Virus record (IMG/VR): IMGVR_UViG_3300047564_002075
From: an uncultured virus (IMG/VR IMGVR_UViG_3300047564_002075)
Taxonomy: Duplodnaviria > Heunggongvirae > Uroviricota > Caudoviricetes
Length of the DNA: 20,000 nt
Reading direction: 5' to 3' (one strand)
Of this stretch, positions 6,983 to 19,961 are shown in pieces. The position numbers and the translations under genes were made by a program. Within the stretch, counting starts at the first letter, position 1; every line of letters begins with the position of its first letter. A model generated the notes under the pieces. That model ran no database searches, was not told the DNA's origin, and was given only the letters and a program-made list of their open reading frames with translations.

Positions 6983-7012
6983 ATTATACCAGAGAAGCCC
7001 CTCACCAGTCAA
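6983..7012 (-). promoter_or_regulatory. Sigma70-type early promoter for the 6960 gene
   Basis: TTGACT-N18-TATAAT overlapping the end of thyX. Confidence 0.65.
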
Positions 7013-7637
7013 GGGCTTCTGCAACGGTTGGAAACTGTTCTTTAAACACCTTCTTGCAATCTTCTGCAATAATCATGTGTTCTTTCTGAGTTCCATTCTC
7101 ACTCCTCAGATTAATATAATGAATCCAAGAACGGCAACTGCCAGTCATATAGATACGAGTTGGAGTTGCAAGAGGAAGAACAAAGCGAGCACACTCTTTT
7201 GCAACACCATTCTCAATCAGATGGTTGTAGAGTGACATACCTTGTTCAAAGTATGTTGCAATCTGTTTCTGGGATAGTTCAATGAATGCAGGATCTAGAT
7301 CATCAATAGAGTTCTGACGATTCTTTGTATCTTGACGACGCAACTCTGGTACTGGAATAGTTGCATCCAAAAGGTTTGCATCAGCATACCTTTGTGAAAA
7401 CTCTTGAAATGTAAAACTTCTGTGTCGGAGTATTTGGGCTGCAATACCACGATTCGTTTCAATCTCCAGAGTCATAGAAGATTGTTCAAACACAGACCAA
7501 TGATTATGTTTAATGCAGTAACGAAGCAGACCAGCGTAGTTTTCATTTTCCTGATTAGCAGGATTGGAAACCCTGGCAATGTATGCCATAGTTTGTTCTG
7601 CATCAGGTGTAATAGAAATCAGTTTAACAGAACTCAT
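7002..7637 (-). CDS. thyX: Flavin-dependent thymidylate synthase
   Basis: ThyX signature RHRSFTFQEFSQRY, plus HWSVFE, AKECARFVLP and TQKEH. Confidence 0.97.
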   Translation of the reverse strand: MSSVKLISITPDAEQTMAYIARVSNPANQENENYAGLLRYCIKHNHWSVFEQSSMTLEIETNRGIAAQILRHRSFTFQEFSQRYADANLLDATIPVPELRRQDTKNRQNSIDDLDPAFIELSQKQIATYFEQGMSLYNHLIENGVAKECARFVLPLATPTRIYMTGSCRSWIHYINLRSENGTQKEHMIIAEDCKKVFKEQFPTVAEALDW

Positions 7638-10369: not shown

Positions 10370-10602
10370 ACTAGGTTGTTCTCCTTCAAGTATTTAATAG
10401 TATCTGTACAACCTCCAATGTGTTCATCATTAACTATTACTTGAGGGAACGTGGATCCCCTACCAAACTCAGAATAAAATTCTTCTTTAGTGAAATGATC
10501 ATCTAAATCATACACAACATAATCAGCTTCTATAAGTTCAAGAACTTGTTTTACTTTACTGCAATATGGGCAATTGTTTTTAGAATAAACTGTAAATTTC
10601 AT
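10366..10602 (-). CDS. nrdC: Glutaredoxin (T4 NrdC-like)
   Basis: CPYC active site, TFPQV and IGGCTD. Start taken at MKFTVYSK. Confidence 0.92.
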   Translation of the reverse strand: MKFTVYSKNNCPYCSKVKQVLELIEADYVVYDLDDHFTKEEFYSEFGRGSTFPQVIVNDEHIGGCTDTIKYLKENNLV

Positions 10603-10939
10603 CTCTAATCTCAAACGATCGGTCTATACTTTGTGCTGTAAAATCTTGTGCATGTAATTTTCTACCAAGATAGATTGCTCCTTTTCTTGGATTTGGTTTA
10701 CCACAGGTAAAGATATCACACACTGCGGTTCCTTTTTCAGGCCAAGTGTGAATTGAAATATGAGATTCTGCAAGTAGTGTTACTGCAGTGACTCCCTGTG
10801 GATCAAATTTATGAGTAGTCGTTTTTAAAAACGTGGCCCCCATATGGTGTGTCGCTTCCCAAAGTATCTTACGAATATAATCTTCGTCATCTAGTAGGGA
10901 AGCCTGACAACCATATAGAGTAAACACAATATGTTTCAT
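10580..10939 (-). CDS. speD: S-adenosylmethionine decarboxylase proenzyme (pyruvoyl-dependent)
   Basis: F.PQGVT...LLAESHISIHTWPE.G.A..DIFTCG containing the E-S autocleavage site. Confidence 0.93.
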   Translation of the reverse strand: MKHIVFTLYGCQASLLDDEDYIRKILWEATHHMGATFLKTTTHKFDPQGVTAVTLLAESHISIHTWPEKGTAVCDIFTCGKPNPRKGAIYLGRKLHAQDFTAQSIDRSFEIRDEIYSLF

Positions 10940-10962: not shown

Positions 10963-11208
10963 TTATTTATTGGGATCCATTTTGCGAATTTGGAATAGGT
11001 TACTCTTATAGTATTTACGTTTTTGTTTGATTAATTTTTTAATTGCTTCAAATCTTTCCTGTTCTAGTTCTCTTTCTTCTCTAGTCTTTACTGGTTGAGA
11101 TTCGGAAACAGTCACGGGAAGATCTACTTTTCTAACTTCCTCTTCAACAGTCTCTGATTGCACATCAATTACTTGTTCTTCCATCGGTTTGTTCATGCGA
11201 GTGGTCAT
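10963..11208 (-). CDS. Small charged hypothetical protein
   Basis: Acidic N-half and basic C-half. True start may be the second or third Met because the -10 box lies only 2 nt upstream of 11208. Confidence 0.6.
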   Translation of the reverse strand: MTTRMNKPMEEQVIDVQSETVEEEVRKVDLPVTVSESQPVKTREERELEQERFEAIKKLIKQKRKYYKSNLFQIRKMDPNK

Positions 11209-11308
11209 CTATTATACCAGGAGTCTTTGGTTTTTGCAAGGTGAATAGTTGAGGCCAAGTATCCCTGATAATTTCAACAAGTTTGTATGGGGTATCGTCG
11301 TTGATCAT
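11165..11308 (-). CDS. 47-aa small protein absent from the ORF track
   Basis: MINDDTPYKLVEIIRDTWPQLFTLQKPKTPGIIDDHSHEQTDGRTSN. The TPYKL.EIIRDTWPQL segment resembles a small ORF I recall from cyanomyoviruses. AATAAATA lies 19 nt upstream. Confidence 0.6.
   Translation of the reverse strand: MINDDTPYKLVEIIRDTWPQLFTLQKPKTPGIIDDHSHEQTDGRTSN
11211..11239 (-). promoter_or_regulatory. Sigma70-type promoter
   Basis: TTGCAA-N17-TATAAT on the - strand. Confidence 0.7.
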
Positions 11309-11327
11309 AATGTTTTAAATTTAACAG

Positions 11328-11345
11328 TATTTATTTTTATAAATA
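11328..11345. promoter_or_regulatory. Back-to-back late promoters
   Basis: AATAAATA on - (11328-11335) and perfect TATAAATA on + (11338-11345). The + site points into the inserted operon. Confidence 0.75.
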
Positions 11346-11350
11346 AACGT

Positions 11351-11582
11351 GGAGGAGAAATCCTTCAGTTAGAGATCAAGATGTATTACTAAAAGATTCC
11401 AGTAATGGCTCTTTCATTAATGCTTCAACTCTAATTGAATTACGATTCAATTTGAAATAGTAATAATCCCAGACGATTCACTCGTGTCGTCTGTGGCACC
11501 GATTCGTCTGGCATTATGTCAGGGACGGATTGGATCGTTTTCTCCTCTCCAAACAACATTCTTTTCCTTAAGGAGAAAACAA
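11351..11582 (+). ncRNA. Putative structured 5' leader (cis-regulatory RNA) of the + strand operon
   Basis: Pairings read directly: 11352-60/11539-47, 11364-74/11429-39, 11433-40/11445-52 (UACG loop), 11463-76/11504-17, and 11537-46/11571-80 (covers the RBS). Confidence 0.55.
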
Positions 11583-12377
11583 ATGGCAGATCAAGTTTAT
11601 GTTCCAGATCCATGGTCAATGCTCGCAGGACAGCATTCAGACATTCGTAGAGAAGGTTCTGTAGAGCGTGGCGAGATTCGTTACGACGTTGCTACTCGTG
11701 CCGCTGACAACCGTTATGCTAACGCTGTTGGTCAAGGCGAAATCAAGTATGCTATCGCTGAACATTCCGAATCAACCAACCGTGACATTCTAACCACTGG
11801 TTTTAATACTTCAGTCAAGGTAGATGAAGCTGCTGATAAGATTCAGCAAAGAGCTGCTGACTTCTATATTGCTTCTCAAGCAAGAGATTTTGATAACTCT
11901 CGTGACCTTGCTGCTCTCAGAGCATCTCAAGACCTTGCAGCTCAGAAACTCAGCACAGAGATTCTTCTTGCTACCGAGAAGACTGCTACTGCTCAGGCTC
12001 TTGAGTCAGCAAGACTTGGTGCTGCTGTAGCACTCGGACAATCACAGATCAGCAAGGAAATTGCTGAGAGCAAGTATGACCTCAGCAAGCAGGTTGCTTA
12101 TGAGAATGAGAAGACTCGTGATCTCATCAATTCACTCAAGAATGATGAACTCAATAGACTTCTCATTGAGCGCAACACTGATATCAATAGCCTCCGTGGA
12201 GATTATTGGGGTGTTAGAGATGGTCTGTTCAACAGCCAATTCGCTGCACTATCTTCACAAGTTAACTCTCAGTTAAACTCACTTAACAGTCAGATTGCTG
12301 AGACCCGTCAGGGCATGGTTAACTTCGGAACCATGGCTGGTGTAGGTCAGTCTTCAACCAGCAACGCTGTACGCTGA
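11583..12377 (+). CDS. 264-aa Ala/Ser/Gln-rich coiled-coil protein with 11-residue repeats and an N/Q/S-rich C-terminal motif; function unknown
   Basis: AAGGAG RBS before ATG 11583 (the ORF-track GTG start lies in the leader). Hendecad periodicity visible. No Cys and no evident signal peptide. Confidence 0.85.
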   Translation: MADQVYVPDPWSMLAGQHSDIRREGSVERGEIRYDVATRAADNRYANAVGQGEIKYAIAEHSESTNRDILTTGFNTSVKVDEAADKIQQRAADFYIASQARDFDNSRDLAALRASQDLAAQKLSTEILLATEKTATAQALESARLGAAVALGQSQISKEIAESKYDLSKQVAYENEKTRDLINSLKNDELNRLLIERNTDINSLRGDYWGVRDGLFNSQFAALSSQVNSQLNSLNSQIAETRQGMVNFGTMAGVGQSSTSNAVR

Positions 12378-15328: not shown

Positions 15329-16390
15329 TTATAGAGCATTACCTCTCGGTAAGACCTCTTCTGGAAACACAAAGTTCTCATGAGGTTGATCTACTGGTGC
15401 CATCCAGGCACGCAGACCTTCATTAAGGAGGATATTCTTCGTATAGAAAGTTTCAAATTCAGGATCCTCCGCAGCACGAATCTCCTGAGAAACAAAGTCA
15501 TAAGCACGAAGGTTAAGGGCAAGACCAATAATACCGATACTGGAGGTCCAGAGACCCATAACAGGCACAAACAACATAAAGAAATGAAGCCAACGCTTGT
15601 TACTAAAAGCAATACCAAAAATCTGAGACCAATATCTATTAGCAGTGACCATAGAATACGTCTCTTCTTCTTGTGTTGGTTCAAAGGCTTTGAAAGTGTT
15701 TGCTTTTTCACCATCTTCGTAAAGAGTATTTTCAACTGTAGCGCCATGAATGGCACAGAGTAGTGCTCCTCCTAGAATACCAGCAACTCCCATCATATGA
15801 AAAGGATTAAGAGTCCAGTTGTGGAAACCCTGAAGGAACAGAAGGAACCTGAAGATTGCTGCGACTCCAAAGGATGGTGCAAAGAACCAACTGGATTGAC
15901 CCAGAGGGTACATCAGGAACACGCTGACGAATACAGCGATAGGACCAGAGAATGCGATTGCGTTATAAGGACGGATACCCACCAGGCGAGCAATCTCAAA
16001 CTGACGCAACATGAAACCTATAAGAGCGAAGGCTCCATGGAGCGCCACAAAAGGCCAGAGTCCCCCAAGTTGGAACCACCTGACGATATCTCCCTGAGCC
16101 TCAGGGCCCCAGAGAAGAAGAAGAGAATGACCCATAGAATCTGCTGGAGTACTAACTGCCGCAGTAAGAAAGTTTGCACCCTCAAGATAGCTGGATGCAA
16201 GGCCATGAGTGTACCAACTCGTAACGAAAGTTGTCCCAGTAAGCCAACCACCAAGAGCAAGATAAGCTGTGGGAAAAAGAAGAAGTCCAGACCAGCCAAC
16301 AAAAACGAAACGGTCTCTCTTAAGCCAGTCATCCAGTACATCAAACCATCCTCTCTGTGTAATTGGTTGTGAAAGTGTAGATGAAACCAT
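15329..16390 (-). CDS. psbD: Photosystem II D2 protein
   Basis: [22 protein letters not shown]...[10 protein letters not shown], full length, GGAGG RBS. Confidence 0.99.
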
Positions 16391-16450: not shown

Positions 16451-17530
16451 TCAACCGATTGCAGGTGCGGTGAGAGCAACAGGAGTGTTCTCTGCAGCAG
16501 CAAGGTCAAGAGGGAAGTTGTGAGCATTACGCTCGTGCATGACTTCCATACCAAGACCAGCACGGTTCAGAACATCAGCCCAAGTGTTGAGTACACGACC
16601 TTGTGAGTCAATGATGGACTGGTTGAAGTTGAAACCGTTGAGGTTGAAGGCCATCGTGGAAACACCAAGAGCAGTGAACCAGATACCAACTACAGGCCAT
16701 GCAGCAAGGAAGAAGTGCAGTGAACGAGAGTTGTTGAATGATGCATACTGGAAGATGAGACGACCGAAGTATCCATGAGCAGCAACGATGTTGTAGGTCT
16801 CTTCTTCTTGACCGAACTTGTAACCATAGTTCTGGGACTCATTCTCGGTGGTCTCCCTTACGAGCGAAGACGTGACCAGACTTCCGTGCATAGCACTAAA
16901 CAGACTGCCACCAAATACCCCAGCCACGCCAAGCATATGGAACGGATGCATAAGGATATTGTGTTCTGCTTGGAAGACGAGCATGTAGTTAAACGTTCCC
17001 GAGATTCCAAGAGGCATTCCATCGGAGAAGGAACCTTGACCGAAGGGATAAACAAGGAACACAGCAGTCGCAGCAGCCACGGGAGCAGAATAAGCAACGC
17101 AAATCCAAGGACGCATACCAAGACGGTATGAAAGTTCCCATTCGCGCCCCATGTAGCAGAAGACACCAATGAGGAAGTGGAAAACCACGAGTTGGTAAGG
17201 TCCGCCATTGTAGAGCCATTCATCAAGTGAAGAAGCTTCCCAGATGGGATAGAAGTGAAGTCCAATAGCATTGGACGAAGGAACAACAGCACCAGAGATG
17301 ATGTTGTTTCCATACATTAGAGAACCAGCAACAGGTTCACGAATCCCGTCAATGTCAACGGGTGGTGCAGCGACAAAGGCAACAATGAAACAAATAGCAG
17401 CTGCGAGTAGAGTTGGAATCATTAGAGTTCCGAACCAACCAACATAAAGACGATTGTTGGTTGAAGTGATCCACTCACAGAATTGTTCCCAAGTGTTGCC
17501 ACTTCGCTGTTGAGCGAGAGTTGCAGTCAT
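16451..17530 (-). CDS. psbA: Photosystem II D1 protein
   Basis: [34 protein letters not shown] plus C-terminal extension. Uninterrupted 359 aa. Confidence 0.99.
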
Positions 17531-19845: not shown

Positions 19846-19853
19846 TATTTATA
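19846..19853 (-). promoter_or_regulatory. Late promoter (TATAAATA) upstream of the SLH protein gene
   Basis: Exact match 26 nt upstream of the start codon. Confidence 0.7.
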
Positions 19854-19878: not shown

Positions 19879-19961
19879 TGTCGGTAAGAGGACTTGAACC
19901 TCCACGTCATAAAGACACTGGAACCTAAACCCAGCGCGTCTACCAATTCCGCCATACCGAC
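19879..19961 (-). tRNA. trnL: tRNA-Leu (anticodon UAG), CCA not encoded
   Basis: GTCGGTA/TACCGAC acceptor stem, D-arm TGGCGGAATTGGTAGACGC, anticodon arm CTGGG-TTTAGGT-TCCAG, long variable arm, T-arm GGTTCAAGTCC. Confidence 0.97.

Follow-up and report, generated by a model that had tools for sequence, protein, structure and literature searches.

A conserved, folded 5' leader RNA upstream of a late rod-protein gene in T4-like cyanophages

We describe a structured RNA leader in a 20,000-nucleotide (nt) stretch of DNA from an uncultured virus (IMG/VR record IMGVR_UViG_3300047564_002075), the whole of which we refer to as the window. The leader occupies positions 11351-11582 of the plus strand, immediately ahead of a late operon whose first gene encodes a 264-residue protein predicted to be a coiled-coil rod. 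Comparison with homologous loci shows that it is a conserved, single-copy, folded RNA that stands before this same rod-protein gene, and our conclusion is that it represents a new, uncatalogued family of cis-acting RNA. An initial annotation of the window, made from the one sequence, had proposed a long structured leader with mutually exclusive pairings able to hide the ribosome-binding site (RBS). The long structured leader is upheld by what follows, in that it begins at a late promoter, is far more stable than shuffled sequence and has a fold that covaries; the pairings proposed to hide the RBS turn out to be a property of one clade.

The leader and its conserved fold

The best explanation of positions 11351-11582 is that they form the 5' untranslated leader, about 235 nt in length, of the late operon mRNA. 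T4 late promoters, as excerpts of PMC2988020 describe them, have an 8-bp box at the -10 position, with variants at -13/-12. Such a box lies just upstream of the leader; TATAAATA occurs four times in the window where 0.98 occurrences would be expected by chance. From the geometry of the T4 box we place the predicted +1 at about 11351, the first base of a 5' hairpin, P1. The same arrangement, an 8-bp box at -10 some 6 nt before the predicted start, precedes all 21 full-length leaders in our collection at the same distance (TATAAATA in 16, ACTAAATA in four and CATAAATA in one), with 5-7 nt between the end of the box and P1. The gap contains no open reading frame (ORF) of at least 50 residues with a conserved frame. 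We considered and rejected peptide coding by a mini-ORF (MYY*) at 11381, the start codon of which is lost (ATG to ACG) in nine of the 21 aligned leaders. ORFs of 20-47 residues exist around 11165-11392.

Homologues were collected in two ways. A protein-guided scan of viral contigs returned 53 loci related to the 264-residue gene, and the regions upstream of the closer relatives contain a conserved leader of 230-300 nt. DNA-pattern scans, two of viral contigs and one of metagenome contigs, were filtered with an nhmmer profile of the leader; on the viral contigs the first pattern gave 76 stretches, many of them without an nhmmer match and likely to be chance, and the second gave 26, of which one (L154) had no match. 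The outcome was 25 distinct homologous leaders from uncultured phage and metagenome contigs, 21 full-length and four partial. Nineteen of the 21 full-length leaders lie directly 5' of a homologue of the rod-protein gene, the remaining two being cut by contig ends, and apart from those two, which could not be checked for this reason, none precedes any other gene. In each of five phage records searched by BLAST, including three complete genomes of 225-258 kb, the leader is present in one copy, second matches being the rod-like part of the RNA matching its own reverse complement. Among 50,697 records of cultured phages we found nothing like the leader: blastn with 11209-11640 matched the upstream spacer only (eight records, query positions 17-111), and tblastn with the 264-residue protein gave no match. 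A pattern scan for the leader in a prokaryote genome collection gave no match either. At two loci (L017 and L019) the protein is 73-79% identical over most of its length and the leaders are entirely different. The leader is thus tied to the gene while the gene is not tied to the leader, and this argues for a role in cis.

Folding of the whole leader gave a minimum free energy (MFE) of -75.7 kcal/mol, compared with -51.5 +/- 4.8 for shuffled sequences (z = -5.06; none of 200 shuffles was as good). The structure we tested on the alignment of the 21 full-length sequences (A2) is the RNAalifold consensus with one helix, P2, added by hand, and comprises 62 pairs arranged as follows.

11338..11345, plus strand: T4-type late promoter box TATAAATA, with the predicted transcription start at about 11351
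11351..11366, plus strand: P1, hairpin GGAGGA-GAAA-UCCUUC (11351-56 with 11361-66), starting at the predicted +1
11368..11435, plus strand: domain A, in which P2 (11368-74 with 11429-35) encloses P3 (11380-11426); from covariation
11442..11538, plus strand: domain B, a rod of about 95 nt made of P4-P7; from covariation
11442-53 with 11527-38, plus strand: P4, with six of 13 pairs changed on both sides
11454-62 and 11518-26, plus strand: 9x9 purine-rich internal loop between P4 and P5
11463-67 with 11513-17, plus strand: P5, from the covariation test
11469-76 with 11504-11, plus strand: P6, from the covariation test
11478-11502, plus strand: P7, the tip of the rod, from the covariation test

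In this consensus fold 96.2% of the alignment cells are paired, compared with 36-49% when partners are slid by one to three columns, and 20 pairs have changed on both sides. Not one of 500 shuffles matched it in percentage paired, in double changes or in covariation score. G.U combinations fill 117 and A.C combinations nine of the 1302 cells, and this excess indicates that the structure is one of plus-strand RNA rather than of DNA or of the opposite strand. Single-sequence MFE folds regain most of the consensus pairs (all 62 in L004, for instance, and all but one of 59 in L002).

The individual helices differ in how they have evolved. P1 is paired in 93.7% of cells and five of its six pairs have changed on both sides; its loop, read by eye from the alignment rows, is of the GNRA type in 14 of the 21 leaders. 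The helices of P2 and P3 (the latter consisting of P3a, a 3x3 internal loop, P3b, P3c and a variable loop) are 98-99% paired, with compensatory changes such as a GC to AU double change in P2 of L067 (TTAAAG/CTTTAA) and the replacement of AAAGA/UCUUU by AGUGA/UCACU in P3b of L022 and L028. Seven of the eight P3a pairs never vary. P5/P6 is likewise tightly held (99.4% paired, eight of 15 pairs never varying), and besides P3 and P5/P6 the unpaired loop nucleotides are also almost invariant. Beyond P4 comes a variable linker, followed by a conserved pyrimidine tract, the Shine-Dalgarno (SD) sequence and an A-rich spacer. Identity is higher in the leader than in the protein encoded after it: in L030 it is 75% for the leader and 45-52% for the protein, and in L068 76% and 46%. 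In seven of the 21 leaders (L008, L018, L020, L022, L028, L094 and L164) an insertion of 55-65 nt separates P3 from the 3' strand of P2 (A2 columns 90-152); it has no counterpart in the window and forms an extra hairpin in the fold of L018; this is a variable arm of the kind found in many structured RNAs.

The initial annotation had been unable to place the leader in an Rfam family, and covariance-model scans bear this out. At the gathering threshold, Rfam 15 recognized only a tRNA (19879-19961) in the whole window and no family in 20 loci of distant homologues. A scan of 11100-11700 at E <= 10 gave five matches, all sub-threshold, and in 20 homologous loci at E <= 1 there were only tRNAs and one chance match to a small nucleolar RNA outside the leader. 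The best match was to freshwater-2 (RF02980), a cis-regulatory motif from freshwater metagenomes, at 11507-11585. Its score is 24.6 bits (E = 0.15 over 601 nt) where the gathering threshold is 49.9, and the model found no match in 20 homologous leaders at E <= 1, a cut-off that we estimate at about 27 bits for a search of that size. The likeness consists of a hairpin whose loop is AU-rich and of AAGGAGAAAACAAAUG some 40 nt further on, and the difference is that the 84-position model covers none of P1-P6. We reject membership in freshwater-2, the match resting on one hairpin (F, below) and, for the most part, on the string of RBS and start codon. A literature search found nothing that describes the element; the supplements of the 2010 and 2017 motif-discovery papers lay outside that search and could hold an unnamed candidate.

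Competing hairpins and the initiation region

In addition to the consensus fold, the leader can form local hairpins that exclude parts of it, and its 3' end can mask the SD. The features concerned are as follows.

11433..11452, plus strand: H, UACG-capped 8-bp local hairpin, mutually exclusive with P4; from covariation
11470..11493, plus strand: hairpin a, CAGACGA with the inner TCGTCTG, excluding P6 and P7; from the alignment
11507..11523, plus strand: hairpin F, UCUGGCA-UUA-UGUCAGG, excluding P5/P6; from the alignment
11537..11546, plus strand: clade-specific anti-SD GUUUUCUCCU in the variable linker after P4; not conserved
11559..11585, plus strand: initiation region, with the pyrimidine tract, hairpin UUUUCC-UUAA-GGAGAA (11562-77), SD GGAG (11572-75), A-rich spacer and ATG (11583-85); from folding and alignment

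The complementarities on which the initial annotation was built are all present. GTTTTCTCCT at 11537-46 is the exact complement of AGGAGAAAAC in the RBS region (11571-80); GAGGAGAAA at 11352-60, near the 5' end, is complementary to 11539-47; an 11-bp pairing (11364-74/11429-39) and the UACG-capped hairpin (11433-52) can both be drawn; and CAGACGA (11470-76) finds TCGTCTG at both 11487-93 and 11504-10. These are exactly the perfect inverted repeats of at least 8 nt in the leader, the 10-nt repeat being the longest. Of 1000 dinucleotide shuffles, 39 also contained a perfect repeat of at least 10 nt (P = 0.039) and 14% had one of at least 9 nt, so that a single 10-nt complement is only marginally beyond chance.

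Covariation among the homologous leaders separates these pairings. As a check on the annotation it supports the P1-P7 fold, parts of which the annotation had seen, and leaves both of the proposed RBS-switch helices at the level of shuffled alignments. For the helix between the anti-RBS and the RBS, paired cells make up 63.9%, the shuffles giving 62.9% (132 of 500 were as high), and for that between the 5' end and the anti-RBS 52.1%, the shuffles giving 52.5%; the 5' end instead forms the covarying P1. The anti-RBS GTTTTCTCCT itself is present in only three of the 21 full-length leaders (the window, L015 and L023), and the conserved long-range anti-SD that marks an RBS-sequestering leader is thus absent across the homologues. 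Within the window sequence the annotation's picture does hold thermodynamically: the MFE fold (-75.7) pairs the 5' end with the anti-RBS, and enforcing P1 gives a fold of -71.6 with local hairpins and with the anti-RBS on the RBS. It is a clade-specific elaboration.

We regard it as very unlikely that the whole family is served by a switch in which the RBS, the anti-RBS GUUUUCUCCU and the 5'-end segment GGAGGAGAAA compete three ways. The closeness of the two window folds in energy, the difference of only 0.6 kcal/mol between the rod and local-hairpin states of the window when P1 is enforced, and the shuffle probability of the 10-nt complement all speak for it, but the two helices are at shuffle level across 21 leaders, the anti-RBS is confined to three of them and P1 covaries as a local hairpin. 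Nor does the co-occurrence of a GCAA loop in P1 with UUGCUC in the linker show a clear association (counts of 4, 3, 4 and 10). A pairing of the P1 loop with the linker (GAGCAA/UUGCUC), which can be drawn in some leaders, was set aside on the same grounds.

The internal alternatives fared better. The annotation held that the interior of the leader has mutually exclusive helices, and three of these are kept in the 21 homologues; it had missed P4, the longest-reaching and principal helix of the rod domain. The core of its 11-bp pairing is kept as P2, with the pair at columns 26/162 unpaired in 14 of the 21; its UACG-capped hairpin is kept as H; the outer partner of CAGACGA forms P6, and the inner partner, which gives hairpin a, is kept as well. 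H is paired in 90.8% of cells, compared with 12-59% in slid controls, and only two to four of 500 shuffles reach the observed values; its changes include UA to CG in seven sequences and GC to AU in three. P4 is the real competitor of H, and at one point three strands have changed together: positions 11438, 11447 and 11533 are G, C and G in most leaders and A, U and A in L015 and L023. Hairpin a is paired in 85.6% of cells against 25-59% in slid controls, with three cells changed on both sides. Hairpin F is paired in 98.0%, is among seven helices with at least six columns at 88% or more, and takes in the invariant GUCAGG of the internal loop.

Taken over the whole alignment, conserved potential helices number 23, whereas alignments with shuffled columns have 6.2 +/- 2.9 (at most 17 in any of 200); with a stricter setting the figures are 13 and 2.4 +/- 1.8. 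To judge from the sequences, the helices that have alternative partners (P3a and P5/P6) appear to be those that are invariant, while P1 and P7, which have none, drift and covary. The leader may plausibly switch between conformations. Two further pairings were rejected. A hairpin T, formed by the 3' strand of P4 with the linker, has per-sequence z scores of -2.7 to +0.6 and uses different pairs in different clades. A pseudoknot of the internal-loop purines with the pyrimidine tract is 94% paired, with one-sided changes only and with 85% still paired after a slide of +1, and its duplex energies (median -5.1) are no better than those with shuffled tracts.

At the 3' end, the hairpin between the pyrimidine tract and the SD is found in 20 of the 21 leaders with an energy of -3.1 to -4.4 kcal/mol; it is paired in 97% of cells, and its changes are one-sided only. 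The SD is mostly paired in the single-sequence ensembles of all 21 (unpaired probability 0.02-0.29), its partner in most leaders being the tract 5-9 nt upstream. In L024 the tract is absent and the SD pairs with CUCUCC of the linker (-6.3).

Candidate modes of action

The scenario that we favor, tentatively and with analogy to T4 as one of its supports, is that of a cis-acting leader with two roles: P1 at +1 and the rod would stabilize the late mRNA, and the core would be recognized by a putative trans-acting factor that tunes translation. More specifically, (i) the leader would act in cis; (ii) the hairpin at +1 plus the compact rod would protect the late transcript; (iii) translation would be set at the initiation region, with the SD only lightly masked; (iv) the factor, likeliest a protein rather than a metabolite, would recognize the near-invariant P3 and the P5/P6/internal-loop region; (v) its binding would either shift the balance between the rod and the local hairpins H, a and F or block the initiation region directly; and (vi) the 10-nt anti-RBS of the window would be a further means of masking the SD, gained within a single clade. 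What leads us to propose a factor is that helices and loops are near-invariant, more so than pairing requires and far more so than the encoded protein, which would point to sequence-specific recognition rather than to structure alone.

The action of such a factor would resemble that at the T4 gene 32 and gene 43 operators as described in excerpts of PMC3014915. According to these excerpts, the gene 32 leader has a structured 5' element followed by an A+U-rich stretch that reaches the RBS, and the gene 32 mRNA is unusually stable (PMC3014915). The cyanophage leader has in common with these operators a structured element near the 5' end, an A/U-rich and largely unpaired stretch leading into the RBS, and an mRNA for an abundant phage protein. 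The differences are that the cyanophage leader is much larger, with about 190 structured nt in two domains, that no pseudoknot emerged in it, a 5' pseudoknot bound by the product of the gene itself being the mark of a gene 32-type autogenous operator, that its transcript is late rather than early or middle, and that there is no sequence similarity; RNA binding by the rod protein would be purely hypothetical.

A second T4 comparison concerns genes e, soc, 49 and I-TevI, in which upstream sequence masks the SD in inhibitory hairpins of the initiation region. The late promoter of these genes lies inside the hairpin, so that late transcripts escape masking. The likeness is that in both cases a T4-type phage masks an SD with upstream sequence. 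An inhibitory hairpin of this type can be rejected for the cyanophage leader, in which the promoter box precedes the entire leader in all 21 cases and the partner of the SD is a weak adjacent tract.

A number of points weigh against the two-role scenario. The binding factor is putative and the transcript start is a prediction, and the sequence invariance could instead reflect recognition by an RNase or tertiary structure. The changes in hairpin F and in the SD hairpin are one-sided, which makes these hairpins consistent with the alignment and leaves them unproven, and a scan of all column pairs, dominated by co-changes of particular clades, showed that many single-column covariations are confounded by phylogeny and unusable for single pairs. 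With P1 enforced, the H state lies above the P4 state in free energy by a median of 9.0 kcal/mol (H minus P4, -0.6 to +18.9), near-equal energies being found only in the window (-0.6) and L023 (+1.7). Since the rod is favored by a median of 9.0 kcal/mol, a free equilibrium between H and P4 is unlikely outside the clade of the window. Forcing the H state opens the SD (unpaired probability of at least 0.2) in only nine of the 21 leaders and closes it further in the window's clade, so that the coupling to translation is inconsistent across the family.

One rival reading is a constitutive leader, in which the 5' hairpin and the rod form a passive stabilizer or insulator before a strong initiation region, with no switch and no factor. 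P1 starts at the predicted +1, the rod dominates in most homologues, the SD hairpin is weak (-3.1 to -4.4 kcal/mol), and the orthologous genes of other lineages, too, stand behind structured leaders, unrelated in sequence. Among known systems, P1 resembles the stabilizing 5'-terminal hairpin of the ompA leader in starting within a few nt of +1; the comparison accounts for P1 alone and not for the other ~170 conserved nt. If the structure were passive, its sequence would be expected to drift and its pairs to persist, which is what P1, P4 and P7 show, whereas P3, P5/P6 and the loop nucleotides are almost invariant, and the excess of conserved competing helices would go unexplained. We consider this alternative unlikely.

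We give the same low weight to a more elaborate version of regulation, a new class of factor- or ligand-responsive switch in which a relay of overlapping helices runs from the capped 5' end to the RBS, and the P3/internal-loop core senses a signal of the infected cell and so times the production of accessory fiber proteins. Along the relay, every step of which shares this doubtful standing, P1 would compete with an extension of P2, H with P4, F with P5/P6, the purine block with the pyrimidine tract, and that tract with the SD.

A metabolite riboswitch, with the invariant junction and internal loop as the aptamer and a ligand that fixes P4/rod against H and thereby alters access to the SD, strikes us as less probable still. 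The leader is similar to riboswitches and ribosomal-protein leaders in that it has covarying stems, invariant loop or junction nucleotides and competing helices and lies immediately 5' of an ORF. Stems that covary around invariant loop nucleotides are what is expected of an aptamer, a feature not specific to riboswitches; the exclusive helices H and P4 are both maintained, with the three-way co-change at 11438/11447/11533; and the variability of the linker would suit an expression platform. Against this, the leader matches no Rfam riboswitch class, invariance extends from its loops to its helices, the modeled effect on the SD differs by clade, and the genes downstream (helical rod, collagen-like/tail-collar-like protein and papain-type peptidase) are structural and fiber-like rather than metabolic or transport genes.

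It could also be imagined that the structured part is cut out, perhaps through RNase III acting on the rod or RNase E on the linker, and works in trans as a decoy or sponge, or that the cut activates the mRNA. P5/P6 does offer two turns of near-continuous helix, the linker is AU-rich, and the sequence conservation exceeds what a structure in cis would need. We regard a processed RNA as very improbable, however, as no full-length leader with a checkable downstream gene precedes anything other than the rod-protein gene, there is no terminator between leader and gene, and the spacing to the SD is conserved. The stand-alone non-coding RNA that the initial annotation had offered as an alternative is unlikely for the first two of these reasons, the RNA never being found apart from the gene. 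Least probable of all is a switch driven by temperature or folding kinetics, on the model of the cspA leader or fourU thermometers, in which co-transcriptional local hairpins would persist in the cold and the rod would form, and the tract/SD pairing melt, in the warm, because the UUUUCC/GGAGAA hairpin of 20 leaders and the conserved competition of local hairpins with a stabler long-range rod suggest it by analogy alone, the SD hairpin lacks proof by covariation and L024 lacks the tract.

Genomic setting and significance

The window comes from a T4-like cyanophage of freshwater type, an uncultured lake virus. It carries psbA (16451-17530), psbD (15329-16390), a gene for a SpeD-type S-adenosylmethionine decarboxylase (10580-10939) and a ThyX gene (7002-7637, its identity read off the translation), all on the minus strand, and its DNA is also found at 100% identity in a 31,957-base IMG/VR contig (L001). 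The leader occupies a divergent intergenic region, with minus-strand genes to the left and the plus-strand operon to the right. The operon encodes, in order, the 264-residue protein, a collagen-like/tail-collar-like protein, a papain-type peptidase and a small tyrosine-rich protein.

11583..12377, plus strand: first gene of the late operon, start codon ATG at 11583-85; 264 residues, predicted to be one long alpha-helix

The 264-residue protein matches no Pfam or PHROG family. Its predicted structure is a single continuous helix (residues 19-252, mean predicted local distance difference test score 79.4). Its C-terminal motif, TRQGMVNFGTMAGVGQ, is invariant.

Orthologues of the rod gene in other lineages (L017, L019, L031, L032 and L034) have long leaders of their own, 130-231 nt and of unrelated sequence, with predicted structure at z scores of -1.8 to -5.2 (against mononucleotide shuffles). 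L032 and L034 have in common a conserved block after a TATAAATA box, and the blocks common to L017 and L019 follow sigma-70-like -10 boxes. Such leaders may represent additional families not yet catalogued, and their existence suggests that the operon generally needs post-transcriptional handling. In front of the L026 homologue, which is 72% identical to residues 41-264, what is left is about the last 60 nt of the linker and initiation region, preceded by a terminator-like hairpin; the leader may have been lost there, the contig ending 195 nt upstream. The distant homologues L035-L052 have a short hairpin (ATGAGAG...CTCTCAT) directly before the RBS together with a recurring TTTAAGTA-like motif, and the end of the gene upstream of them reads, by eye from the DNA, like a LuxR-type helix-turn-helix.

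Two other parts of the window deserve mention. The spacer stretch 11225-11319 (~95 nt) is 78-79% identical to unannotated DNA of the Synechococcus phages S-WAM2, S-H9-1, S-RSM4 and S-SCSM1, its counterpart in S-RSM4 being the psbA-psbD spacer. It bears a minus-strand sigma-70-like promoter (TTGCAA-17-TATAAT, with an extended TG) that faces an 81-residue gene (10963-11208), it is overlapped by a 47-residue ORF (11165..11308, minus strand), and from its sequence it looks like a portable promoter or leader module. The tRNA gene at 19879-19961 (minus strand, 83 nt, 53.5 bits) has an 11-nt insertion at the variable-arm position, and a TATAAATA box lies at 19846-19853 on the strand of the tRNA, inside or downstream of the region adjoining it.

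The structured RNAs of phages are poorly catalogued, and the leader described here, large (~235 nt in two domains) and with strong support from covariation, would add a well-defined orphan family to the T4-like cyanophages. It is more conserved than the protein encoded behind it and is absent from Rfam 15 and from the cultured phage and prokaryote genomes that we searched. There is also a lesson in how it was found, namely that one sequence may show a conspicuous anti-RBS complement which is a peculiarity of its lineage and not the conserved mechanism. For the phages themselves, which are of ecological importance, the leader offers a concrete way into the control of late genes after transcription. 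Should the leader indeed respond to a factor or a ligand, it would reveal how a phage sets the timing or the dosage of an accessory virion structure.

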